DNA from: Candidatus Parcubacteria bacterium
GTDB taxonomy: Bacteria; Patescibacteriota; Patescibacteriia; Patescibacteriales; UBA12075
DNA: 64,000 nucleotides
Assembly (NCBI GenBank): GCA_963814275.1
Contig: CAWFCE010000001.1
Coordinates: 323,307-387,306 of the forward strand
Reading direction: 5' to 3'
A program made the position numbers and the translations under genes. Below the pieces are notes generated by a model. The model did no database searches and was not told the origin of the DNA. It was given only the letters and a program-made list of their open reading frames with translations. Within the stretch, counting starts at the first letter, position 1. Every line of letters starts with the position of its first letter. Positions 3,069 to 55,488 of this stretch are shown piece after piece.

Positions 3069-4295
3069 ATGGGAAATGTTAAAAATATATTGAAAACGGC
3101 AGCGATTGATGCCGTTATAATGGCCTTGGCCGGTTATTGGATATTTGAAGGGGATTGGCCCTTTCTGCCCTGGCTGCTTTTGGCCGGTGTTACTTTGGCA
3201 TTCATACATAAGGAAAGCAAGGCGCATAAATATTTACCCGGATTAATGATCGGTTCCTTGGTATTCGGTTTGTTGACCATGATTTTCGTATTTTTACGGA
3301 TGTATGTTTTTTCGCATTTCTTCTATGATTCGTCCTTGCCTTTTTCGTTTTTATTCAATCCGGAATGGGGTATAATGGCTGCCGTTTTCGCGGCCGCCGC
3401 CTTTCTGGGCGGGCTAATGGGAATCGCGTTAAAAGGGTTCTATTCGTTATATAAAAATAAACTCGATTATGCCTTGTTGCTTCTGGGACCGGCGCTGTTG
3501 ACGCTTGCCTCCGTATCGATCGCCAGGATCAAATACGGCGGCACGATCTTAAGCACGCTCTCGGGCTGGCCGTATTATTTCATCACTTACCGGGTTAAGG
3601 ATATCATCGACAATTTCCGTATCGACGAAAGGTCATTCACACCAGGTAGCCTCTATCATAATATTATTTTGGATTATTTGTTCTTTTTGGTAATCCTGGT
3701 CTTGGTATATTTGTTGATGCGCGCCGTTAGCGGCCGCTGGAACGCCGTAAAGACCCACACCACATTCGTCCTGTCCGGTCTTGTGGTAGCCGGCTTGATC
3801 GCGATGATGTCTTATTTGCCGGCCAGACAATCATATATATCCCGGCAGATCGCCCGGGCCGGAAATTGCGCGACTGATGCGGAATGCGTCATTGTCGGTA
3901 ACAAGTGCCCTTTCAGCTGTGCGGTCGTGGCTAACCGCAATGAAGCCGATCGGATCACCAGGCTGGTCAATTTATTTCCCTCGACCTGCGAACTGTCTTG
4001 TCCCGGCAATAACCGGGCAGTTTGCTTGAACGGCAGCTGCCGGGTGGCCGACCAGGAGACGGCGGACAATGGGTTGGATAGCCGGAACGGCAATAATATC
4101 GCGTGGCTGCGGATCATCCAGGCGATATCGAATTGCGAGGCTGTACGGCTTTTCCAGGCGCACAGCCTCAGGGTGCAGGCACAGCTAAAGGACGGCAGCG
4201 AGCTGGAGGCGACCGAACCCGTGATCGACGAAATCTTCCGGGTGGCGGAAACGGCGGAAGAAAAATGCGGACACATTCCGGTGGCGACGGAATAG
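3069..4295 (+). CDS. polytopic membrane protein with Cys-rich C-terminal domain
   Basis: Multiple hydrophobic spans in the first ~250 aa, then CATDAECVIVGNKCPFSC...CELSCPG...CLNGSC. Confidence 0.6.
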   Translation: MGNVKNILKTAAIDAVIMALAGYWIFEGDWPFLPWLLLAGVTLAFIHKESKAHKYLPGLMIGSLVFGLLTMIFVFLRMYVFSHFFYDSSLPFSFLFNPEWGIMAAVFAAAAFLGGLMGIALKGFYSLYKNKLDYALLLLGPALLTLASVSIARIKYGGTILSTLSGWPYYFITYRVKDIIDNFRIDERSFTPGSLYHNIILDYLFFLVILVLVYLLMRAVSGRWNAVKTHTTFVLSGLVVAGLIAMMSYLPARQSYISRQIARAGNCATDAECVIVGNKCPFSCAVVANRNEADRITRLVNLFPSTCELSCPGNNRAVCLNGSCRVADQETADNGLDSRNGNNIAWLRIIQAISNCEAVRLFQAHSLRVQAQLKDGSELEATEPVIDEIFRVAETAEEKCGHIPVATE

Positions 4296-4380
4296 CATAT
4301 GGCCCATAATCATGCTTATATAAAATAATTCAATGGGATCGGTTTTCGAATAAACATTCAAATCAAAAAGGAGGCAGGCA

Positions 4381-4737
4381 ATGAAAGATCTGGGACATGT
4401 CGTCGCTTTTATCAGTATTTTCCTTCTTATCATGACGGTCATATGGACGAGTGATCTCGAGCGGCAGCGCGAAATCAGGCAGGCAAGCGAAAAGGGAGTT
4501 ATGCTCAAACTGGCCCATGCCCTCAATAATCTGGGGGAATTCAGACAGGCGTTCGATTGCCTGACCGCCGTATTTGTGACCGGCATCAAGCCCCGCACCT
4601 TCCTGGAATGGGAGGCGCAAAAGGAAAAAAGATCTTTGGCAAAACAGAAGTTAACTATGGCCGTTAATAAGGCGGAAAACAAGCAAAAACTGATCAAAGT
4701 GTTATTGCTGGCGGCCGGGTCCGGCCAAGTCCGGTAG
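4381..4737 (+). CDS. hypothetical membrane-anchored protein (118 aa)
   Basis: AAAGGAGG RBS; one N-terminal hydrophobic span. Confidence 0.55.
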   Translation: MKDLGHVVAFISIFLLIMTVIWTSDLERQREIRQASEKGVMLKLAHALNNLGEFRQAFDCLTAVFVTGIKPRTFLEWEAQKEKRSLAKQKLTMAVNKAENKQKLIKVLLLAAGSGQVR

Positions 4738-4807
4738 AGACCGGATATATCAAAGAGAGCGGAGTATTTCCCGGAAATGCTCCGTTTTGCTTTTTCATAT
4801 GGATATG

Positions 4808-4872
4808 TAGGATGCTGAAGCATCCCGGACCTTCGGCCCTGCCTGCCGGCAGGCAGGTAAAGCCAAGTGGAA
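4808..4872. repeat. composite hairpin repeat (GGATGCTGAAGCATCC / CCTTCGG / CCTGCCTGCCGGCAGGCAGG / GCCAAGTGGAA)
   Basis: About 65 bp recurs in inverted orientation at 49899-49962 with a few mismatches. Confidence 0.8.
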
Positions 4873-4916
4873 GCGAACGGGCATGGGAACGCACAATTTT
4901 GCGTTCCTTCCGGTTA

Positions 4917-5006
4917 TTTTTATAATTTGACTGTTTACCTAAACTGGAGTAAATTTAAGTAAATAAAGTTCGATGACAAACCTTCCATAAAGGAGAAGCC
5001 GGGGGG
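4917..5006 (+). promoter_or_regulatory. conserved promoter plus hairpin/U-tract leader, copy A (upstream of pyrD)
   Basis: TTGACT(4917-4922)-17 nt-TAAATT(4940-4945); 10-bp stem 4967-4976/4991-5000; T6 run; block-wise conserved with 8773-8859. Confidence 0.55.
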
Positions 5007-5084
5007 TTTGTTTTTTCGTATTTGGACATTGAAAATCAATTTAACCGGAAATAAATTTGAACTGGCAGAAAGGAGATAAGGAAC

Positions 5085-6065
5085 ATGGCAGGATTAACAT
5101 TACGGGGAGTGGGTTTCAAATCAGTATTTACAGCATCCGGAACGCTTAATTTCTTCGGAGACGGTTGGCCGCCTCATCGCTTGTTCAGTTCGTTCTTCGG
5201 CAAACGATTCGATTTTAGCGGCGCTACCTTTATTTCAAAAACCACTACGCTATCGCCGCGAGCCGGTCATATGCCGCTGGATAACGATTTACAGCCGAGG
5301 GAATATTTTCCCAAGTGTATCAATGCTAATTACTGGAAAGGCGTAACCTTGAATTCAGTCGGATTGAGCGGGCCGGGCGCGATTGAATTGTTTCGCCGGA
5401 AAAAGTGGCAGTCCAGAATATGGCCATTTCTCATATCATTTATGAGCGTCGGCAGTTCACCGGATCTAAGACTGGGCGAAGCAGCAAAATTTGCGGATAT
5501 GCTCATCGCGGAGCAGCCGAATTTCCAAACGGATTTCGGCATTCAGGTGAATGTGTCTTGTCCGAATACAGACCACGCGACAAGGGAAATGATCGACGGT
5601 TCTCTCGGCATTCTGGAAGTATTCAAAAAACTGTCCGTGCCGATTGACCTCAAGATCGGCGTAGCTGATGCGATTGAAGCGGGAACACCCTTCACCAGGG
5701 AGATCGAGGCTTCCGGGCTCTGCGACTGCTTGACCTGTTCGAATACGATTCCTTGGGGCAGACTGCCCGAGCGGATCGACTGGCCAGCCTTGTTCGGTAC
5801 CCGTGAGTCGCCTTTGAAACATTTGGGTGGCGGCGGGCTGTCAGGTAAACCGCTTAAACCGATCGTGATCGAATGGCTAAAAACGGTAAGAGACGCCGGT
5901 ATCACGATGCCGATCAAAGCCGGCGGCGGAATCCTGGCAAGGCGGGATGTTCGCGAGTATATGGAAGCCGGCGCTTCGGCATTTGAGATCGGCAGTATCG
6001 CGATACTGCGCCCTTGGAACGTACGGCGTGTTATCGAAACCGGAAATAATATCTTTAGGAGGTAA
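5085..6065 (+). CDS. pyrD: dihydroorotate dehydrogenase, class 1-like
   Basis: NVSCPNT (Cys-type active-site loop), GGLSGKPLKP and GGGI..RDV.EY..AGASA.EIGS motifs; GGAG RBS. Confidence 0.8.
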   Translation: MAGLTLRGVGFKSVFTASGTLNFFGDGWPPHRLFSSFFGKRFDFSGATFISKTTTLSPRAGHMPLDNDLQPREYFPKCINANYWKGVTLNSVGLSGPGAIELFRRKKWQSRIWPFLISFMSVGSSPDLRLGEAAKFADMLIAEQPNFQTDFGIQVNVSCPNTDHATREMIDGSLGILEVFKKLSVPIDLKIGVADAIEAGTPFTREIEASGLCDCLTCSNTIPWGRLPERIDWPALFGTRESPLKHLGGGGLSGKPLKPIVIEWLKTVRDAGITMPIKAGGGILARRDVREYMEAGASAFEIGSIAILRPWNVRRVIETGNNIFRR

Positions 6066-30706: not shown

Positions 30707-31117
30707 ATGAAAAAGTTAATGTATACGGTTGCCGGCCTCACCCTGGTGGCGGTAATGGCATTTCCGGCCATTACATTCGCGGATACCGGTAACACATCGA
30801 CGAATAATTCCGGCATACTCGGAATGACGAATGGCAATAGTTTGGGGAATCTCTTTATTCTGGACCGGCTGTTCAACAACAACCGGGGCCTGTTCAACAA
30901 CAACCGGACCAATCTCGGCGATCTCTTCATTTTGGACCAATTGTCGGGCAATACCAAATTGCTTGGCAATAATAACACCAATCTGGGGGATATGTTCGTC
31001 CTAGACCGGCTGTTTAACAACAACAGCGGACTCCACATCCTGAATAACGGCAATAATCTGGGTGATCTCTTCGTATTGGATCAGCTGTTCAACGGCTCCA
31101 ACCTCCTATCAAAGTGA
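30707..31117 (+). CDS. small secreted Asn-rich repeat protein
   Basis: Signal peptide, then five copies of an N(L/I)G(N/D)(L/M)F(I/V)LD(R/Q)L(F/S) unit separated by N-rich linkers. Confidence 0.55.
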   Translation: MKKLMYTVAGLTLVAVMAFPAITFADTGNTSTNNSGILGMTNGNSLGNLFILDRLFNNNRGLFNNNRTNLGDLFILDQLSGNTKLLGNNNTNLGDMFVLDRLFNNNSGLHILNNGNNLGDLFVLDQLFNGSNLLSK

Positions 31118-34639: not shown

Positions 34640-34664
34640 ATTATCCAATTTTCAATTCTACATA

Positions 34665-34687
34665 AATATCCCGGTGGGATATTTTTT
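34665..34687 (+). terminator. intrinsic terminator
   Basis: aatatccc/gggatatt stem followed by T6. Confidence 0.65.
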
Positions 34688-34751
34688 AATTTAAAGTTAA
34701 TTAATAATTTATATAATATAAATATGAAATTAACAAATATTTTTAAAAAAT

Positions 34752-35225
34752 ATGGAAGAAGATAAATCAAAATCGAACGGTGGAATGATCATCGGCGTAA
34801 TTATTGCAATAGTTGTTATCGCGGGCGTGGTATATTATTTCCAAAGCCGTCCGCAGGCGCCGCAAGCAATGGCGCCTGGCGCAGCGACGCCGGTTGCGGG
34901 CGGCAATGGTACAGATTATACTCCGAGCGATACGATGAGCACGACAACGGAAGTAAAAACTTTCGACTTAATCGCACGGAATTATTCCTTTACCCCCAAT
35001 GAGATCAGGGTAAAGACGGGCGACAAAGTAAAGATTAACTTGACGAGTGAACAGGGTTTCCATGATTGGACGATAGATGAGTTCAAAGCCGCCACCAGCC
35101 GGATAAATACGGGTGAAACCGCGAGCGTGGAATTCACGGCGGACCGGCCGGGCACTTTCGAATTCTATTGCAGCGTGGGCAACCACCGCCAACTGGGCAT
35201 GGTGGGGAATTTGATCGTGGAATAG
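34752..35225 (+). CDS. membrane-anchored cupredoxin (type-1 copper) domain protein
   Basis: N-terminal TM span; ligand pattern H(DW)...C-x4-H-x4-M in FYCSVGNHRQLGM. Confidence 0.75.
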   Translation: MEEDKSKSNGGMIIGVIIAIVVIAGVVYYFQSRPQAPQAMAPGAATPVAGGNGTDYTPSDTMSTTTEVKTFDLIARNYSFTPNEIRVKTGDKVKINLTSEQGFHDWTIDEFKAATSRINTGETASVEFTADRPGTFEFYCSVGNHRQLGMVGNLIVE

Positions 35226-35400
35226 CATGGGAGTTATATGATATATTCCAAACCAAAGTATTTAGACTATAAAAAATATCCTTTGAGGATATTTTTTATT
35301 TGTTATAGCTGTTATTTAACCGAAATTTCCCGCGAAAACCCGGGCTGAAGCCCGGTAGAAAGCCGGAGCATTATTCTGACGGGCTTCAGTCCGGGTTCGG

Positions 35401-36762
35401 ATGGGTGCCGTGTATTCGGTTTTTAACGATATGCGTTTAAAATATTCAAAATCGATTTTAATTGCAGTGGTTTTATTAAACCTGCTGGTCATTCTTTATT
35501 TTTGGCGGCAGAATTCAGGCAGTTTGCTCAAGGGCAGTAATGCCGATATCCTGCTGGCTGCGGGCCGGGCCAGCGGCCTGATCCTCGTATTTCTGATCCT
35601 ATCCCAGCTTTTTCTGATGGGCCGGGCCAGGCCCCTGGAAAGGGTTTGGGGGCTGGACAGACTTTCGCGCATCCACCATTGGAACGGCGTGTTGGCCCTG
35701 GTTTTCCTGTTTGCGCACCCGATCTTGATCGCCAGCAGCCTGGCGCTTTATGAAAAAATCAATTTTTTCCGGTCATTATTGCTTTTCCTGCAGAATGACG
35801 ATGTTCTGGCCGCTTTTTTCGGGCTAGTGATCCTGCTTGCAGTTATTTTCGTATCGACAGCCGTGATTATTTTCCGCTGGCGTTATGAGTTTTTTTATTT
35901 TCTTCACCTCACCGTTTATCTGGCGATACTCCTGGTCTTCAGCCATCAGATGGAATTGGGCGGCGATTTTGGCGCCCAGCCCCTGTTCCGCGCTTATTGG
36001 ATATTATTGTATACGGCGGTAATCGGCCAGTTGCTGTTCTACCGCTTTGCCCGCCCGCTCTGGCTGTCCTGGCGCTACCGTTTCCGGGTGAAAGAAGTGA
36101 ACGCGGAATCGCCTGAGTCGGTATCGATCATAATCAGCGGCCGTGATACGGGATCATTCAGGTCAATTCCCGGACAATTCATGATCTATCGTTTTTTCGC
36201 GCCGCGGCTGTGGTGGCAGGCGCATCCTTTTACTATTTCCGGCCGGCCGGATGGTGATATCCGGCTGACCGTCAAGGCAGTGGGGGATTATACCCGGGAT
36301 ATCCAGAAGCTAAAACCCGGTACATCGGTTTTGCTTGAAGGGCCATACGGCGTTTTTACCGCCCGGGAGCCGCTGAAGGATAAATATTTGTTGATTGCCG
36401 GCGGCATCGGCATCACGCCGCTTTTTTCTTTGGCCGAATTTTTAACCGTTAAAAGGAAAGACGTGATATTGGTTTACGGCAATCGCACTAAGTCCGCGAT
36501 CGTGTTCAGGAGTGTCCTGGATCGGATGGCAAAACAGCGGGAAAATCTGCGCGTAAATTATATATTGAGCGAGGAAAAACGGCCGGGATACGCGAACGGA
36601 TACGTTGATTTGGATAAAATAACAAAATTCGCACCGGATTACCATGAACGGGAAATCTATCTCTGCGGCCCGGTGCCGATGATGAATAAATTGATTGCCG
36701 AATTGGGAAAGAACGGCGTGAAGAAAAAGAGATTGCATTATGAAAAATTTTCGTTAAATTGA
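35401..36762 (+). CDS. NOX/FRE-type flavocytochrome (ferric-reductase TM domain plus FAD/NAD(P)H-binding domain)
   Basis: Two TM His pairs (HHW-x13-H, H-x12-H), HPFTISG, GPYG, GGIGITP and CGP motifs; alternative start at 35431. Confidence 0.8.
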   Translation: MGAVYSVFNDMRLKYSKSILIAVVLLNLLVILYFWRQNSGSLLKGSNADILLAAGRASGLILVFLILSQLFLMGRARPLERVWGLDRLSRIHHWNGVLALVFLFAHPILIASSLALYEKINFFRSLLLFLQNDDVLAAFFGLVILLAVIFVSTAVIIFRWRYEFFYFLHLTVYLAILLVFSHQMELGGDFGAQPLFRAYWILLYTAVIGQLLFYRFARPLWLSWRYRFRVKEVNAESPESVSIIISGRDTGSFRSIPGQFMIYRFFAPRLWWQAHPFTISGRPDGDIRLTVKAVGDYTRDIQKLKPGTSVLLEGPYGVFTAREPLKDKYLLIAGGIGITPLFSLAEFLTVKRKDVILVYGNRTKSAIVFRSVLDRMAKQRENLRVNYILSEEKRPGYANGYVDLDKITKFAPDYHEREIYLCGPVPMMNKLIAELGKNGVKKKRLHYEKFSLN

Positions 36763-36805
36763 CATTTATCTTGACATTAAATATCGGTTTTGATAATATT
36801 CATAT

Positions 36806-37074
36806 ACTTATGGGGCACGATTCCGGGAATGATGCATGGCGCCCAATTGAGGACCGGCGGTTTTTCGCCAGCCACAGGGACCCGGATGGACCTATACGCC
36901 GGCATATCGGTTCCATTGTAGTCACACCGGAACCGACAAATATCCTCGCGCAGGGGTTTTTCATATTCGTCATACCGGGAGACGAGATTATCGTCCCGGA
37001 ATCGTGTTCCACCAATTCCCCTTTTTTGTTCATTGTTAAACCCCCTGACAGCGTTACTGTCAGGGGTCTTTTTT
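36806..37074 (+). ncRNA. candidate structured sRNA (rod-like, 6S-like or other), family unknown
   Basis: TTGACA(36771-36776)-17 nt-TGaTAATAT(36794-36799); 17-bp closing helix 36812-36828/36994-37010; internal hairpins; terminator 37042-37066 followed by a T run. Confidence 0.5.
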
Positions 37075-37182
37075 ATCCCAAATAATTCCTGATATTTAAT
37101 TTTGAAATAATAATTAGTTAATTGCGTACTAATAAATAGAAAGGAAGTTTTCCCTAAAAAAATTATTAATGAAACCACAAGT

Positions 37183-37644
37183 ATGGATTATTTTCAGAAA
37201 TACAAAAAAGCGGCGATCAGTATCGCTATCCTGACGCTTATGATGACCGCCGGCCTCAGTTCGGCCTATGCCGCGACCGACAGCCAGGGGTTCACGCCAA
37301 ATTCATTCAAGACCGATACGCAGATCAATCTCTTGAATACCCTGGAGGCAGGGGATTATGAACAATGGAAGCAGGCAGTGGGGCATTATTCCGGCCTTTC
37401 CGGCGTTATTGCCAAGGATGATTTTCTGGAATTCATCCGGGCCCGGAAATTTGCACGCGAGGGCCGCTATGACGAGTCGCTGGCCATGAGCCAGGCTTTG
37501 GGCGACAGATTGGCCGCAAAACTAGTCGATTACCTCAAAACCGACAAGCGCCGTCCGAACAGCCAGACTTGGGATAAGGTTCTGGGCGCCCTGCAGGCCG
37601 GAGATTTTCAGGCGTTAGAAACGATATTGGCTAACACAAAATAA
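37183..37644 (+). CDS. secreted hypothetical protein (153 aa)
   Basis: Signal peptide ending in AYA|AT. Confidence 0.5.
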   Translation: MDYFQKYKKAAISIAILTLMMTAGLSSAYAATDSQGFTPNSFKTDTQINLLNTLEAGDYEQWKQAVGHYSGLSGVIAKDDFLEFIRARKFAREGRYDESLAMSQALGDRLAAKLVDYLKTDKRRPNSQTWDKVLGALQAGDFQALETILANTK

Positions 37645-38075: not shown

Positions 38076-38660
38076 ATGAAGGAATACTATGCCGTGCCGG
38101 ACAAAACCGACGAAGAGCTTGTTGCCATGACCCTGGCCGACCAGGAGAATTTTTTATTTCTCGTCAACCGTTACAAAGAGAAGTTATTCCGTTATATCCG
38201 CCGGCTGACCAATATCAGCGCGGAAGACGCCGAAGACATCCTGCAGGAAGTCTTTATGAAGGCTTACGTCAATTTGAACGATTTCGAACAGGACCTCAAA
38301 TTTTCTTCCTGGATCTACCGCATCGCCCATAACCAGGTGATCAGCCATCACCGCAAAATAATGGTCCGGCCGCAGGGGAACGCGGTTAATCTGGAAGATA
38401 GTGAAGTAATGAACATCGCCGCCGACCTGGATACCGAAAAAGACATCGATATCAAGATCCTGCGCCAGAATATCGATATGGTCGCTTCCCGCCTGGAACC
38501 GAAATACCGCGAAGTGCTGATCCTCAGGTATTTTGAGGATAAGAATTACCAGGAAATCTCCGATATCATCAAGCGCCCGCTCGGCACAGTCGCATCCTAT
38601 CTCAATAAGGCCAAGCAGGAGTTTCGTGACGAGATTGAAAAGCAGAAGATTAAATTTTAA
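38076..38660 (+). CDS. RNA polymerase sigma-70 family (ECF-like) sigma factor
   Basis: Region 2 (DILQEVF.KAY.NL..F......F.SWIYRIAHNQ) and region 4 (YREV..LRYFE...YQEISDI...P.GTV). Confidence 0.85.
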   Translation: MKEYYAVPDKTDEELVAMTLADQENFLFLVNRYKEKLFRYIRRLTNISAEDAEDILQEVFMKAYVNLNDFEQDLKFSSWIYRIAHNQVISHHRKIMVRPQGNAVNLEDSEVMNIAADLDTEKDIDIKILRQNIDMVASRLEPKYREVLILRYFEDKNYQEISDIIKRPLGTVASYLNKAKQEFRDEIEKQKIKF

Positions 38661-38705
38661 TAATTGAGTTGGATTATCGGTCAAGAGCGAAAGGATAACC
38701 TTAAA

Positions 38706-38777
38706 GAAATTTGAAATTAGAAATTGGAAATTCGGAATCGGTTTACGCCCAATTTCCAGTTACAAATTTCAAATTTC
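38706..38777. repeat. GAAATT/GGAAATT-word imperfect palindrome
   Basis: gaaatttgaaattagaaattggaaattc ... caatttccagttacaaatttcaaatttc; related copies at 41689-41774, 46008-46062 plus 46197-46216, 55565-55644 and 63044-63092. Confidence 0.8.
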
Positions 38778-38833
38778 ACTCTTCCTTGTTTGTTCGCATA
38801 TTGGGAATAGATGAAGAAACTAATCAAATATAT

Positions 38834-39706
38834 ATGGAATTAAAAAAATCATTCGGCCAGGAGCTCCTGGGAAAGATCAAGGAAAAGAAACTGGTCCCCA
38901 AACCAAAATGGCAGTTTTTTTTGAAAGATTATATGGTTTGGGGCTCCGGAGTGGCCGCGTTGTTCGTCGGCGGGTTGGCCTTTTCCGTCATTATTTATAT
39001 GTTCATCAATAACGATTGGGGCGTATACGAACATTTCAGCGGCAGCTTGCTTGGTTTTGTCCTGCTGTCACTGCCTTATTTCTGGATATTGCTTCTCGTG
39101 TTATTCATCGCGATCGTCAATTATAATATCAAGCACACCAAGAACGGTTACCGCTATCCGATCGGCGTCATCGCCGCCGCCTCGATCGTCGTGAGCGCCG
39201 GGATCGGGCTGATATTTTTCGGCGCCGGCATGAGCCAGGCGGTAGACGAGATATTGGGAGAGAATTTACCCCTATATGAAAAGTTCATCAATAGCCGTAT
39301 CGGCCAGTGGGAGCATCCCGGGGAAGGGCTGTTGGCGGGATTGGTGACAGAGAGAATTTCGACTTCCAGCATTATCGTCTTCGGACTGGACAGGAAAGAA
39401 TGGACCGTGGACCTGAGTGGGGCGCGGATCGCGCCGGGAGTCGAGATCACTGTCGGCCAGCCCTTGAAGTTTACCGGCGAAGCGGTTTCGGATAATGTTT
39501 TCCGCGCCGGCGAGGTCTTGCCGGCCGGACCGGGCGGGGGATTCCTCAGACGCAACAATCGGATGCATTTTATTGGTCCGGAAGGCGGAGTCCGCAACCG
39601 GATAAACCCGGGTCTGCCTGGCCGGCTGCCGATGATGGAAGGCAGGCCGATCTTACCGGGGTTGCCCCGCGGTATCGGCAGCAGTACGGATAGCGGTAAT
39701 ATTTAA
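38834..39706 (+). CDS. membrane protein partner of the sigma factor (putative anti-sigma-like)
   Basis: Short cytoplasmic N-terminus with KPKPKWQFF, about 4 TM spans, extracytoplasmic C-terminus; paralog at 54754-55488; ATG at 38834 chosen because the track TTG (38711) lies inside the palindrome. Confidence 0.6.
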   Translation: MELKKSFGQELLGKIKEKKLVPKPKWQFFLKDYMVWGSGVAALFVGGLAFSVIIYMFINNDWGVYEHFSGSLLGFVLLSLPYFWILLLVLFIAIVNYNIKHTKNGYRYPIGVIAAASIVVSAGIGLIFFGAGMSQAVDEILGENLPLYEKFINSRIGQWEHPGEGLLAGLVTERISTSSIIVFGLDRKEWTVDLSGARIAPGVEITVGQPLKFTGEAVSDNVFRAGEVLPAGPGGGFLRRNNRMHFIGPEGGVRNRINPGLPGRLPMMEGRPILPGLPRGIGSSTDSGNI

Positions 39707-54097: not shown

Positions 54098-54679
54098 ATG
54101 ATCAGTGAGCTTGAGTGCGAGGGGAAAACAGACGAAATATTGGCGCGCCTGGCCTTAGTTGACGAGGATTATTTGGGTTGCCTGATCAGGCGTTACGAAA
54201 AACCCCTGGCGCGCTATATCCGGCGGCTAACCAATGTAGCGGAAGACGAAATTTCCGATATTCTGCAGGAAGTATTCATCAGCGTTTATAAAAACCTGAA
54301 CGATTTCGACCCTGAGCTCAAATTTTCATCATGGATATATCGTATCACCCACAACCAGGTGATCAGCCACCACCGCAAGAAGCAGAGCAGGCCGCAGACG
54401 ATCGAGGTAGACCTAAGCGATGAATCGCTCAATCATCTGGCTTCCGAATTGGATACCGGCCGTGAAGCCGATTTGCGCCTATTGGGCGAGCAAGTCGAGC
54501 GAACGCTTGCCGGAATGGAAGAGAAATACCGCGATGTATTGGTGTTGAAGTTTTTCGAAGAAAAAAGCTACCAGGAGATTAGCGATATTCTCAAGAAGCC
54601 CATGGGCACGATCGCTACGCTCTTGAGCCGAGCCAAAAAGCAGTTCAGAATTATTTACGAAAAACAAGGTAAAAAGTAA
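54098..54679 (+). CDS. RNA polymerase sigma-70 family (ECF-like) sigma factor, paralog of 38076-38660
   Basis: Collinear with the first copy, e.g. DILQEVFISVYKNLNDFDPELKFSSWIYRITHNQVISHHRK. Confidence 0.85.
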   Translation: MISELECEGKTDEILARLALVDEDYLGCLIRRYEKPLARYIRRLTNVAEDEISDILQEVFISVYKNLNDFDPELKFSSWIYRITHNQVISHHRKKQSRPQTIEVDLSDESLNHLASELDTGREADLRLLGEQVERTLAGMEEKYRDVLVLKFFEEKSYQEISDILKKPMGTIATLLSRAKKQFRIIYEKQGKK

Positions 54680-54753
54680 TTGTAAACCGCGGCAAGCGAA
54701 TATAATAAACGATTTATGATTTACGATCTCCAACTTACGTTTCATGGCCAACA

Positions 54754-55488
54754 ATGAATATGTCCGAAAATATAGCCAGTAAAATACTGGATTCAATCAA
54801 GAAAAAAGACATAAAACCCAAGCCGAAATGGGAGTTTTTAGTGCGGGAATACGCTATTTGGGGACTGGGAATTTTTTCTATTTTAATCGGTGCCCTGGCC
54901 TTTGCGGTAATCGTCTATTTGGTCGTAAACAACGACTGGGATGTGTACGGCGAGGTAAACTCCAATATATTCGCGTTTATATTTCTTACTTTGCCTTATT
55001 TTTGGCTGGTTTTGGTCGCTGGACTGGTATTGGCAGTCATTTATAATTTTCGACACACCAAATACGGCTACCGCTATCATTGGGCGATCGTGGTATTGGG
55101 CAGTATTTTTCTGAGTGTGGGCTTGGGGGTGATCTTCCATCGCGTGGGGTGGGGCGAAGCGATCGATGACACCTTGGGCCGGCGCGCGCCGCTATATGGC
55201 ACAGTTATCAATCCGCGATTGCATCTCTGGATGCAGCCTGAGCAGGGTCTATTGGCAGGCGTGGTGGTCGAAGTTATTACCCCGGAAGAATTTTTTCTTT
55301 ACGATCTGAGCCGTGAGAAGTGGCTGGTTGAGGCTCACAATACGCTGTTTCATCCCATGATAATAATAGAGCCGGGAAGGGAAATAAAAATGATCGGGGA
55401 AATGATCGGCCAGCATGAATTCGAAGCGTTCAATATCATACCGGTCGGTCCGGGCCGCGGCCAATTCCCGACAGATTTAGATTGGTAA
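54754..55488 (+). CDS. membrane partner protein, paralog of 38834-39706
   Basis: KPKPKWEFL, NNDWDVY, LPYFW and HTKYGYRY blocks shared with the first copy. Confidence 0.6.
   Translation: MNMSENIASKILDSIKKKDIKPKPKWEFLVREYAIWGLGIFSILIGALAFAVIVYLVVNNDWDVYGEVNSNIFAFIFLTLPYFWLVLVAGLVLAVIYNFRHTKYGYRYHWAIVVLGSIFLSVGLGVIFHRVGWGEAIDDTLGRRAPLYGTVINPRLHLWMQPEQGLLAGVVVEVITPEEFFLYDLSREKWLVEAHNTLFHPMIIIEPGREIKMIGEMIGQHEFEAFNIIPVGPGRGQFPTDLDW

Follow-up and report, generated by a model that had tools for sequence, protein, structure and literature searches.

A membrane-tethered cupredoxin and a transmembrane flavocytochrome are encoded side by side on the forward strand at positions 34,752 to 36,762, which raises the question of whether the two proteins act together in moving electrons out of the cell. 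The locus was analyzed within its window, that is, the whole stretch of 64,000 nucleotides from whose first letter all coordinates are counted. Tentatively, and with a confidence that stays a little short of even, we favor the view that the flavocytochrome uses NAD(P)H to export electrons across the membrane, with the tethered cupredoxin as their acceptor.

The first gene of the pair (34752..35225, + strand) was delimited by the ORF call, Pfam and AF2 and codes for a protein of 157 amino acids, which matches the Pfam families Cupredoxin_1 (9e-11) and Copper-bind (3.4e-9), both above the cut-offs. Hydropathy and an AF2 helix place a transmembrane anchor at residues 11-31 (34782..34844), which is followed by a Pro/Ala/Thr-rich low-complexity linker of low AF2 pLDDT, probably disordered (residues 32-66; 34845-34949), and by a cupredoxin beta-sandwich domain (residues 67-157; 34950..35222) that was recognized by Pfam, AF2 and Foldseek and modeled with a pLDDT of about 98. 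The predicted copper ligands are His104, within an FHDW motif, and the set Cys140-x4-His145-x4-Met150. Among 120 cupredoxin homologues, the positions of the two histidines and of the cysteine are invariant (120/120 each), and the fourth position is occupied by Met in 116 cases and by Gln in the remaining four. The best match both by sequence (E 1.6e-14) and by fold (PDB 2DV6; rmsd 1.6 Å) is the tethered N-terminal type-1 copper domain of the three-domain nitrite reductase NirK from H. denitrificans, and the alignment puts the ligand residues of the window cupredoxin on the ligand loop of 2DV6, the C-x4-H-x4-M spacing being identical. The window protein, however, is stand-alone and membrane-anchored, whereas its counterpart in 2DV6 is a domain of NirK, and no NirK is encoded in the window. 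All top Foldseek matches were cupredoxin domains (2DV6, N2OR CuA, AcoP and 4HCF), and NCBIfam gave a partial, weak match to CopI. By predicted fold and ligand set, the 157-aa protein is a type-1 (blue) copper cupredoxin, presumably loaded with copper. The anchor, the low-complexity linker and the full type-1 ligand set that the first-pass annotation had described are thus confirmed by Pfam, AF2 and the counts among the 120 homologues.

As to orientation, the window cupredoxin has one N-terminal helix, no cleavable signal, and flanking charges that are ambiguous. The N-terminus of the homologous cupredoxin at L061, an independent metagenome locus, is positive, and in several other homologues a lipoprotein signal (LAAGC) takes the place of the helix; both features suggest that the cupredoxin points outward.

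The second gene codes for an SpNOX-type flavocytochrome b of 443 amino acids (35431..36762, + strand; ORF call, Pfam, AF2 and database version). An alternative in-frame ATG at 35401 would give a 453-aa ORF (35401-36762, + strand), and the database form begins at the ATG at 35431. The latter is the likely start, which sets the spacer between the two genes at 205 bp. With the 453-aa ORF as query, Pfam returned Ferric_reduct, FAD_binding_8 and NAD_binding_1 in the expected order. The six-helix two-heme ferric-reductase domain comprises residues 1-216 (35431..36078; Pfam, AF2 and His conservation), with AF2 helices at residues 2-28, 37-63, 67-108, 123-148, 153-176 and 184-216. Two His pairs, H82/H96 (x13) in helix 67-108 (TM3) and H159/H172 (x12) in helix 153-176 (TM5), are present, all four residues being invariant in 36 homologues. 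In the SpNOX protein from Streptococcus pneumoniae, H69/H129 are the inner and H83/H142 the outer heme ligands (PMC11564096); by analogy, H82 and H159 would hold the inner heme and H96 and H172 the outer one. An FAD-binding domain (residues 219-318; 36085..36384) with the HPFTI motif and an NAD(P)H-binding domain (residues 319-443; 36385..36759) with the GIGITP and CGP motifs follow, both delimited by Pfam and AF2. In 443-aa numbering, HPFTI is found at position 265, GPYG at 304, GIGITP at 325 and CGP at 412.

Every NOX motif of Hajjar et al. (2017) was found in the flavocytochrome when the criteria of that study (PMC5676040) were applied. The closest solved relative by sequence is SpNOX (E 1.8e-21), and with an AF2 model of pLDDT 90.9, the top Foldseek matches were full-length SpNOX structures (TM 0.67-0.79). 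Sequence and model place the 443-aa protein among the bacterial long-form flavocytochromes with a ferric-reductase domain, and within these in the SpNOX type; the corresponding activity is predicted. A eukaryote-type NOX5 or DUOX was rejected, as the protein has no EF-hand or peroxidase domain and SpNOX matches better. Earlier reading of the DNA had ascribed to this protein a six-TM domain with two His pairs and dehydrogenase motifs, in the architecture of prokaryotic NADPH-oxidase homologues; Pfam, the AF2 model and the motif positions agree with the former, and the ranking of SpNOX as best match by sequence and fold with the latter. With SpNOX (PDB 8QT6 and 8QQ7) and the bacterial NOX of Hajjar et al. 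(2017), the flavocytochrome shares the single-chain three-domain build and the six TM helices, and with SpNOX also the bis-His x13/x12 spacing, the HPFT[LIMV] and GIGITP motifs and short outer loops. Nevertheless, identity to SpNOX is just about 22-27%, and the window flavocytochrome falls in a separate clade, whose source-named homologues are mostly from CPR. A further difference is that the papers on SpNOX and bacterial NOX (PMC11564096, PMC5676040) name no genetically linked partner, whereas in the window the neighboring gene encodes a tethered cupredoxin.

For such an exporter we infer cofactor loading, the direction of electron flow, the partnership with the cupredoxin and the terminal acceptor as follows. 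On the cytoplasmic side, NAD(P)H would give up two electrons to the FAD of the enzyme, from which they would leave singly, passing to the inner heme b (H82/H159) and on to the outer heme b (H96/H172) at the outer membrane face. The extracytoplasmic loops of the flavocytochrome have only about 7-14 residues, so short that exposure of the outer heme is to be expected, as it is known from SpNOX and MsrQ. The cupredoxin, which its N-terminal helix and the flexible linker of about 35 residues would tether to the outer face, may serve as one-electron acceptor and shuttle, to complete a path NAD(P)H to FAD to heme to heme to Cu(II)/Cu(I). Candidate sinks beyond it are O2, a metal ion and a copper nitrite reductase encoded in another part of the genome. 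Such export would dissipate rather than build the membrane potential, and the likely benefit to a fermentative CPR cell would therefore be regeneration of NAD(P)+ or reducing power on the outside, not energy conservation. SpNOX itself has an exposed outer heme and reduces proteins directly, and its authors suggest a protein acceptor (PMC11564096), for which the tethered cupredoxin is a concrete candidate, as are equivalents with b5, Rieske or FMN_bind domains.

How far the pair is conserved was examined among relatives. In the clade of the window flavocytochrome a cupredoxin gene lies upstream in 2 of 21 loci, namely the window and L061, and of 105 other loci, counted where the upstream flank spans 600 bp or more, just one has the pair. 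At L061, the anchored cupredoxin is encoded directly upstream on the same strand and the two ORFs overlap; identities between this locus and the window amount to 43% for the NOX and 56% for the cupredoxin. A TAA replaces a Glu codon in the flavocytochrome gene of L061, which is either a pseudogene or affected by a sequencing error. Since the window and L061 belong to one subclade and both have a MacB-type ABC cluster nearby, inherited synteny may account for some of the recurrence of the pair. The nearest flavocytochrome homologues (L142, 54% identity; L059, 52%; L144-L147, 47%; L060) lack the pair, with DsbB encoded downstream of the flavocytochrome instead of a cupredoxin at L142. The nearest cupredoxins (66-67% identity) adjoin CcdA/DsbD and thioredoxin (L140/141) or a P1B-type ATPase with a TPC motif (L148/149), not a NOX. 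All loci were also screened with a cupredoxin HMM at relaxed settings (E < 1, --max), which revealed no further credible neighbors, and a comparison of the window with the Levybacteria cupredoxin locus L151 for deeper synteny, in terms of an ECF sigma factor and small secreted proteins, brought up no more than generic sigma-factor similarity. Lack of conservation in relatives, which the first-pass annotation had named as a ground against its reading, is thus partly borne out: the arrangement recurs at L061, but the closest relatives lack it, the share within the clade is small, and the kin of the cupredoxin are found elsewhere.

The DNA around the cupredoxin gene contains several hairpins. Upstream of the cupredoxin gene, in the gap that separates it from a GNAT gene, there is a hairpin AAATATCCC-GGT-GGGATATTT followed by a T-run (34664..34684, + strand), and then a promoter-like TTTAAA-16-TATAAT (34690..34717, + strand), identified by consensus match only. 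The spacer between the paired genes holds an AT-rich hairpin AAAAAATATCC-TTTGA-GGATATTTTTT with a T-run (35269..35303, + strand), 44 bp past the cupredoxin stop codon, which is missing from the terminator scan list because it has only two G-C pairs and which could serve in regulation or terminate transcription weakly. These two hairpins are the two ATATCC-N3-9-GGATAT sites of the window, where 0.05 would be expected. A strong stem-loop with a stem of about 17 bp (35333..35397, + strand; arms CCGGGCTGAAGCCCGG and a near-complement; fold z = -5.3) directly precedes the flavocytochrome start and could be a 5'-leader structure. The intergenic hairpins reported for the spacer are thus real. Rfam, at gathering as well as permissive thresholds, gave no meaningful match to the intergenic hairpins or to a structured region after the flavocytochrome gene, the matches at 35333..35397 being at chance level (E at least 0.8, far under gathering scores), and neither in the window nor among 153 fetched loci did nhmmer detect a further copy of these elements. 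A 205-bp spacer with a hairpin, a T-run and a second strong hairpin makes co-transcription in the window doubtful. As just 2 of 21 clade loci show the adjacency and the spacer holds a terminator-like hairpin, the conserved adjacency and co-transcription that characterize an operon were not found.

A broader pattern emerged from 141 related loci, in which the adjacent same-strand gene repeatedly encodes an anchor, a low-complexity linker and a small redox domain. The adjacent modules were FMN_bind in 64 loci (with ApbE in 69-75), Rieske in four, Cyt-b5-like in three and cupredoxin in two; in addition, a CuA-type cupredoxin is encoded 1 kb from the flavocytochrome at L088. The single-sequence genome scan sampled mainly distant relatives from Acidimicrobiia and few close ones from CPR, and it is informative for the FMN_bind/ApbE pattern. 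Pfam detected fusions in which such a domain is joined to the enzyme via a seventh helix and a linker, namely Cyt-b5 in P0467 and FMN_bind in P0470 and P0491, and P0507 bears a C-terminal extension that is homologous to the FMN_bind fusions and was not called by Pfam. No cupredoxin-NOX fusion was seen among the top 150 family representatives. Within the clade of the window, none of the 21 loci has FMN_bind or ApbE, and six to seven have a cupredoxin, b5 or DsbB as neighbor. Pairing with FMN_bind and ApbE is already known, and the adjacent cupredoxin is a different tethered module of the same build. The L061 pair, the tethered redox modules across the family, the fusions and the clade neighbors support coupling. 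The path from NAD(P)H to the cupredoxin that the first-pass annotation envisaged is accordingly plausible in the light of the overlapping pair at L061 and of the adjacent or fused redox modules in the family, and is called into question by the absence of the pair from the closest relatives.

Alternatively, the two genes could be independent neighbors, a serious possibility that we nevertheless consider rather doubtful. The flavocytochrome alone would then oxidize NAD(P)H and reduce O2, for superoxide formation or scavenging, or a soluble acceptor, the cupredoxin would serve another system such as NirK, and their genes would lie side by side by chance or as a remnant of synteny. The lack of the pair, both from the closest relatives and from 19 of the 21 clade loci, the varied contexts of cupredoxin homologues, the 205-bp spacer with its terminator-like hairpin, and the subclade and nearby ABC genes common to the window and L061 all fit independence, as do the two hairpins that bracket the cupredoxin gene like a separate unit. 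SpNOX does use O2 in vitro, but its authors question a physiological role of O2 as acceptor (PMC11564096). Moreover, same-strand adjacency, with overlapping ORFs at L061, survives at 43% protein identity while other flanking genes differ, the family is strongly enriched for adjacent or fused tethered redox modules, and in CPR, which are without complex III, no other reductase for an extracytoplasmic cupredoxin is known (PMC12931201). If the pairing were incidental, the flavocytochrome would be a common stand-alone gene in a clade that holds CPR homologues.

Rather improbable in our view is a metal-handling module, in which an extracytoplasmic reductase of Fe(III)/Cu(II), comparable to eukaryotic FRE and to what has been proposed for some MsrQ-like clusters, would be combined with a CopI-like cupredoxin that binds or delivers copper or confers resistance to it and is not an electron shuttle. 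Ferric reductases gave the Pfam family its name, and some MsrQ-like clusters are tied to VIT1 iron transport (Meheust et al., 2021); the reported ferric reductase activity of SpNOX, however, is very poor (kcat 0.05 s-1; PMC11564096). The P1B-type (TPC motif) metal ATPase adjoining a close cupredoxin homologue, the cation-efflux gene that adjoins the NOX homologue at L146 and the partial, weak CopI match would suit metal handling, yet the cupredoxin retains the complete, invariant set of type-1 electron-transfer ligands and most resembles the electron-donor domain of NirK, not a metallochaperone, and the Pfam-scanned ORFs of the window include no metal transporter.

The favored export of electrons from NAD(P)H to a tethered cupredoxin has counterparts in known systems. 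The MsrQ-like systems of Meheust et al. (2021), which consist of a PF01794 protein with NAD-binding domain, an FMN_bind protein and ApbE, belong to the same family (30-39% identity), have a comparable gene order and follow a proposed logic that runs from NAD(P)H through a transmembrane di-heme to a tethered extracytoplasmic redox domain. Their partner, however, is a downstream flavinylated protein, whereas the candidate acceptor in the window is an upstream copper protein. PF01794 is present in the window, but assignment to such a flavinylated system was rejected, since ApbE and FMN_bind are absent from the clade and from the entire 64-kb window. MsrPQ (YedYZ) of Gram-negative bacteria is similar in that a ferric-reductase-domain heme protein feeds an extracytoplasmic partner at an exposed heme cleft. 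MsrQ is driven by quinol, has no described dehydrogenase domain and has the periplasmic methionine sulfoxide reductase MsrP as partner (Meheust et al., 2021; PMC11564096), whereas the window enzyme bears its own FAD/NAD domain and no MsrP-type domain was detected in the Pfam-scanned window ORFs, and membership in MsrPQ was rejected.

NirK has been reported in surveys of Patescibacteria, and a single-domain cupredoxin of CPR (pcy) has been proposed as its electron donor (PMC12931201). According to the same 2025 survey, CPR genomes encode a single-domain 'plastocyanin' and no complex III, and the reductase of that protein is unidentified; a self-contained conduit from NAD(P)H to the outside would supply it. 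In a wider reading, which we think unlikely as a whole, flavocytochromes of the SpNOX type would be general exporters that dock interchangeable tethered carriers (FMN_bind, b5-like, Rieske or cupredoxin) and, in CPR without quinone/bc1 chains, would act as a complex-III-independent NAD(P)H:cupredoxin oxidoreductase feeding NirK-like copper enzymes. If this were true, minimal CPR cells would gain a three-protein electron sink.

No other respiratory genes, for which a check had been suggested, were found in the roughly 50 Pfam-scanned ORFs across the 64 kb, and no terminal acceptor, be it NirK or an oxidase, is visible within this stretch. The module had been thought unusual if the host were a fermentative, respiration-poor CPR organism. 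A CPR/Patescibacteria host is indeed indicated, and a divergent one, as the best named MetRS matches are all from Patescibacteria at 63% identity or less; the module, on the other hand, is not rare in CPR. Homologues of the flavocytochrome at 40-54% identity are numerous, the source-named ones being mostly from CPR taxa, and the family is common, CPR included, and hence not exotic. For this flavocytochrome, CPR cells would have to acquire heme and flavin.

The two genes that the first-pass annotation had read as a membrane-anchored cupredoxin and a NOX/FRE-type flavocytochrome, together possibly forming a transmembrane redox module, were found at exactly the positions it had given. For the flavocytochrome, an ORF at 35401-36762 (+), Pfam matches to Ferric_reduct, FAD_binding_8 and NAD_binding_1 were obtained, and both the database copy and the homologue alignment take the second ATG (35431) as its start codon, so that the protein is 443 aa long. 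The HPFTI, GPYG, GIGITP and CGP motifs claimed for it are all present, as are its two His pairs, H82-x13-H96 and H159-x12-H172, which are invariant among 36 homologues. The best solved relative is the Streptococcus pneumoniae NOX (SpNOX; E = 1.8e-21). A confident AlphaFold2 model (pLDDT 90.9) consists of six long helices followed by a two-lobed dehydrogenase domain, and the top three matches to this model in a Foldseek search of the PDB were full-length SpNOX structures (TM 0.67-0.79), with human NOX5, DUOX1 and NOX2 ranking below them. Since the enzyme has all the sequence features required of a bacterial NOX by Hajjar et al. (PMC5676040), it is what Zhang et al. (2013) term a 'long-form' bacterial ferric-reductase domain (FRD) protein, and is classed from its sequence in the bacterial NOX/long-form FRD family. 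The outer-face loops of the model comprise only about 7-14 residues, which suggests that the outer heme is exposed, as reported for SpNOX (PMC11564096). A word-indexed search yielded more than 800 homologues (40-54% identity), and those few that have a named source are mostly from CPR taxa (WWE3, Paceibacterota, Patescibacteria group), and an exhaustive search of 50%-identity representatives gave 1061 clusters at E <= 1e-30. The enzyme family is therefore common in CPR bacteria, contrary to the expectation that such a module would be unusual there.

The cupredoxin (34752-35225 (+), 157 aa) scored above the Pfam cut-offs for Cupredoxin_1 and Copper-bind. It is composed of a single hydrophobic anchor helix (aa 11-31), a Pro/Ala/Thr-rich linker that is disordered in the AlphaFold2 model (aa 32-66) and a beta-sandwich domain (aa 67-157) predicted with a pLDDT of about 98. 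The complete type-1 copper ligand set ascribed to it corresponds to His104, Cys140, His145 and Met150; across 120 homologues the His, Cys and His ligands are invariant, and the fourth is Met in 116 and Gln in 4. Of the solved structures, the one most similar both in sequence (E = 1.6e-14) and in fold (rmsd 1.6 A) is the tethered type-1-copper domain at the N-terminus of the Hyphomicrobium denitrificans three-domain nitrite reductase, which has an identical C-x4-H-x4-M loop. The protein belongs to a widespread family of anchored type-1 cupredoxins, and the source-named members of this family come from CPR taxa.

In order to see how often the pair recurs, six-frame ORFs of 139 loci, collected by scanning genomes and metagenomes and by one look-up (L059), with further loci added later by exact look-up, were searched with an HMM of the cupredoxin family. 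An upstream flank of at least 600 bp was available in 105 loci, making the absence of the cupredoxin elsewhere informative. Among the loci searched, L061 alone has this anchored cupredoxin directly upstream on the same strand, its stop codon overlapping the start region of the flavocytochrome gene. At 6003-6005 the L061 flavocytochrome carries a TAA where relatives have a conserved Glu codon, splitting the NAD-binding domain and reflecting either a pseudogene or a sequencing error. As L061 and the window fall in one subclade and both have a MacB cluster nearby, inherited synteny may explain part of this recurrence. No cupredoxin was found with the nearest enzyme homologues that have usable flanks, namely L142 (the closest, 54% identity, with DsbB at 1399-1929, 17 bp downstream), L059 (52%; ABC2 membrane protein upstream, MacB trio downstream), L144-L147 (47%; metallophosphoesterase and others) and L060 (44%). 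Judged by the criterion that the first-pass annotation set for itself, a conserved, dedicated two-gene system is thus unsupported. Conversely, among cupredoxin homologues of 66-67% identity, those of L140 and L141 (the closest) are followed by CcdA/DsbD and a thioredoxin, and those of L148 and L149 by a TPC-motif P1B-type ATPase; the L150 cupredoxin is preceded by a FAD/Rieske oxidoreductase, and those of L143 and L151-153 have unremarkable surroundings. The DsbB and CcdA/DsbD neighbours hint that relatives of both proteins have a part in thiol-disulfide chemistry outside the cytoplasm, in organisms presumed to be quinone-free. In L148 (6001-8536) and L149 the cupredoxin is a lipoprotein form, 66% identical, and a MacB-type ABC trio lies upstream of it, as near the window pair and in L059. 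In L088, whose enzyme is a basal clade member, a different, CuA-type cupredoxin (motif CSEFCGSGHRQM; 3574-4017) and a DUF5777 membrane beta-barrel protein (4039-5031) are encoded about 1 kb 3' of the flavocytochrome.

The flanking ORFs of all loci were also clustered and named with Pfam. The two dominant same-strand downstream neighbours of the family enzymes are a small FMN_bind protein (64 loci) and the flavin transferase ApbE (69-75 loci), the arrangement of the 'MsrQ-like' flavinylation-associated system, for which electron transfer from NAD(P)H to a flavoprotein tethered outside the cytoplasm was proposed (Meheust et al., 2021). In a neighbour-joining tree of 130 enzymes the window falls in a separate clade of 21 loci, Saccharimonadales genomes among them, to which L144-L147 were assigned by their 47% identity and not by the tree. 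FMN_bind and ApbE were looked for and are absent from every member of this clade, so the window enzyme, which would work alike, does not belong to the flavinylation-associated systems. Instead, the adjacent gene encodes a cupredoxin in two of the 21 loci (window, L061), an anchored cytochrome-b5-like protein in three (L067:4406-4837, L075:4553-4987, L068:2249-2605) and DsbB in one (L142). Outside the clade, a Tat/lipoprotein-anchored Rieske [2Fe-2S] protein directly precedes the enzyme in four loci (L102:1961-2581, L104, L128:485-904, L134); L104 and L134 also have ApbE and/or FMN_bind genes. These adjacent partners share a common build, in which an N-terminal anchor (or a lipoprotein/Tat signal) leads through a low-complexity linker to a small redox domain at the C-terminus. 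In 4 of the best 150 family representatives the enzyme itself continues into a seventh helix, a linker and a C-terminal extension, the last assigned by Pfam to cytochrome-b5 in P0467 and to FMN_bind in P0470 and P0491, while that of P0507 is homologous to P0491's and has no Pfam call; no cupredoxin fusion occurs among these. Assuming a CPR genome of about 1000 genes with at most five such small redox genes, adjacency by chance would be about 1% per locus. From this rough estimate we infer that small redox genes stand beside the enzyme much more often than by chance, in 5-6 of 21 loci, even if only about three independent events are counted. In the literature searched, no description of a cytochrome-b5 or a cupredoxin pairing with a NOX-type flavocytochrome was found, and the word 'cupredoxin' occurs 0 times in the two flavinylation papers and the FRD-superfamily paper.

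We tentatively propose, at a probability somewhat short of even, that the cupredoxin does accept electrons from this flavocytochrome. NAD(P)H would reduce FAD in the cytoplasmic domain, and electrons would pass one at a time to the inner heme (H82/H159), to the outer heme (H96/H172) and from there, if exposed, to the type-1 copper centre, the 35-residue linker allowing the cupredoxin to reach other targets. Such a path is downhill, as NAD(P)H lies at about -320 mV, NOX-type hemes are of low potential and blue copper is positive. Electron export would run against the usual membrane potential, and the benefit would thus be redox balancing or a supply of reductant outside the cell. SpNOX directly reduces proteins such as cytochrome c, and a protein acceptor not yet named was suggested (PMC11564096). 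According to a 2025 survey, many Patescibacteria encode NirK and a 'plastocyanin' of a single domain, complex III is missing and the reductase of the cupredoxin is unidentified (PMC12931201). NirK is a plausible terminal electron sink, a step that stays speculative as no NirK is visible in the 64-kb window.

That the two genes are independent neighbours is a serious possibility, if on the improbable side. The pair recurs in L061 only, and the 205-bp spacer holds the hairpins of the first-pass annotation, an AT-rich one with a T-run at 35269-35303 and, directly 5' of the flavocytochrome start codon, one with a 17-bp stem (35333-35397; arms CCGGGCTGAAGCCCGG and a near-complement; fold z-score -5.3). 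An ATATCC-N3-5-GGATAT hairpin motif has exactly two copies in the 64 kb (expectation 0.05), at 34666-34682 and 35276-35292, which could represent weak terminators, an operator-site pair or cassette boundaries. Because the two copies bracket the cupredoxin gene, this gene resembles a unit under its own control more than part of an operon. On the other side stands the excess of small redox genes beside clade enzymes. A metal-reduction or copper-handling role for the locus is unlikely. Upstream of the window pair lie genes for a GNAT acetyltransferase, for an aldo-keto reductase and for YibE/F, and on its downstream side are those for a small secreted protein, for an ECF sigma factor accompanied by a membrane protein, and for a MacB-type ABC trio. 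Support for this pair in particular is thin. Considered alongside the parallels with b5, Rieske and FMN_bind partners, the pair nevertheless offers direct experimental access to two stated questions, the acceptor of SpNOX-type enzymes and the reductase of the CPR cupredoxin.

The named best matches of the methionyl-tRNA synthetase encoded in the window are all from Patescibacteria (Magasanikbacteria, Uhrbacteria, Nealsonbacteria, Parcubacteria) and none exceeds 63% identity, so that the window derives from a divergent CPR genome, in agreement with the assumed CPR-type host. Pfam scans of about 50 ORFs across the 64 kb revealed no dehydrogenase complex, quinone, cytochrome c, oxidase, nitrite reductase or heme-synthesis gene. 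Two gene pairs, at 38076-39706 (1.3 kb 3' of the flavocytochrome) and at 54098-55488, each consist of an ECF sigma factor gene, the two being paralogous, and a following gene without Pfam match, whose product is possibly an anti-sigma factor. A 136-aa secreted protein without Pfam match (30707-31117 (+)) is built of repeats of an LGDLF(I/V)LD(Q/R)LFNNN-like unit. Straight after the flavocytochrome stop codon, the region 36771-37076 (+) contains a promoter-like TTGACA-17-TAATAT, then about 200 nt forming a multi-branch fold that a stem of 18 bp closes (z = -4.3), and, at 37042-37076, a strong GC-rich terminator. Neither a meaningful Rfam match nor a second copy was found, the latter in the window and the fetched loci. 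The region may encode a structured RNA that is not annotated, or it may serve as leader to the gene for a 153-aa secreted protein at 37183-37644.
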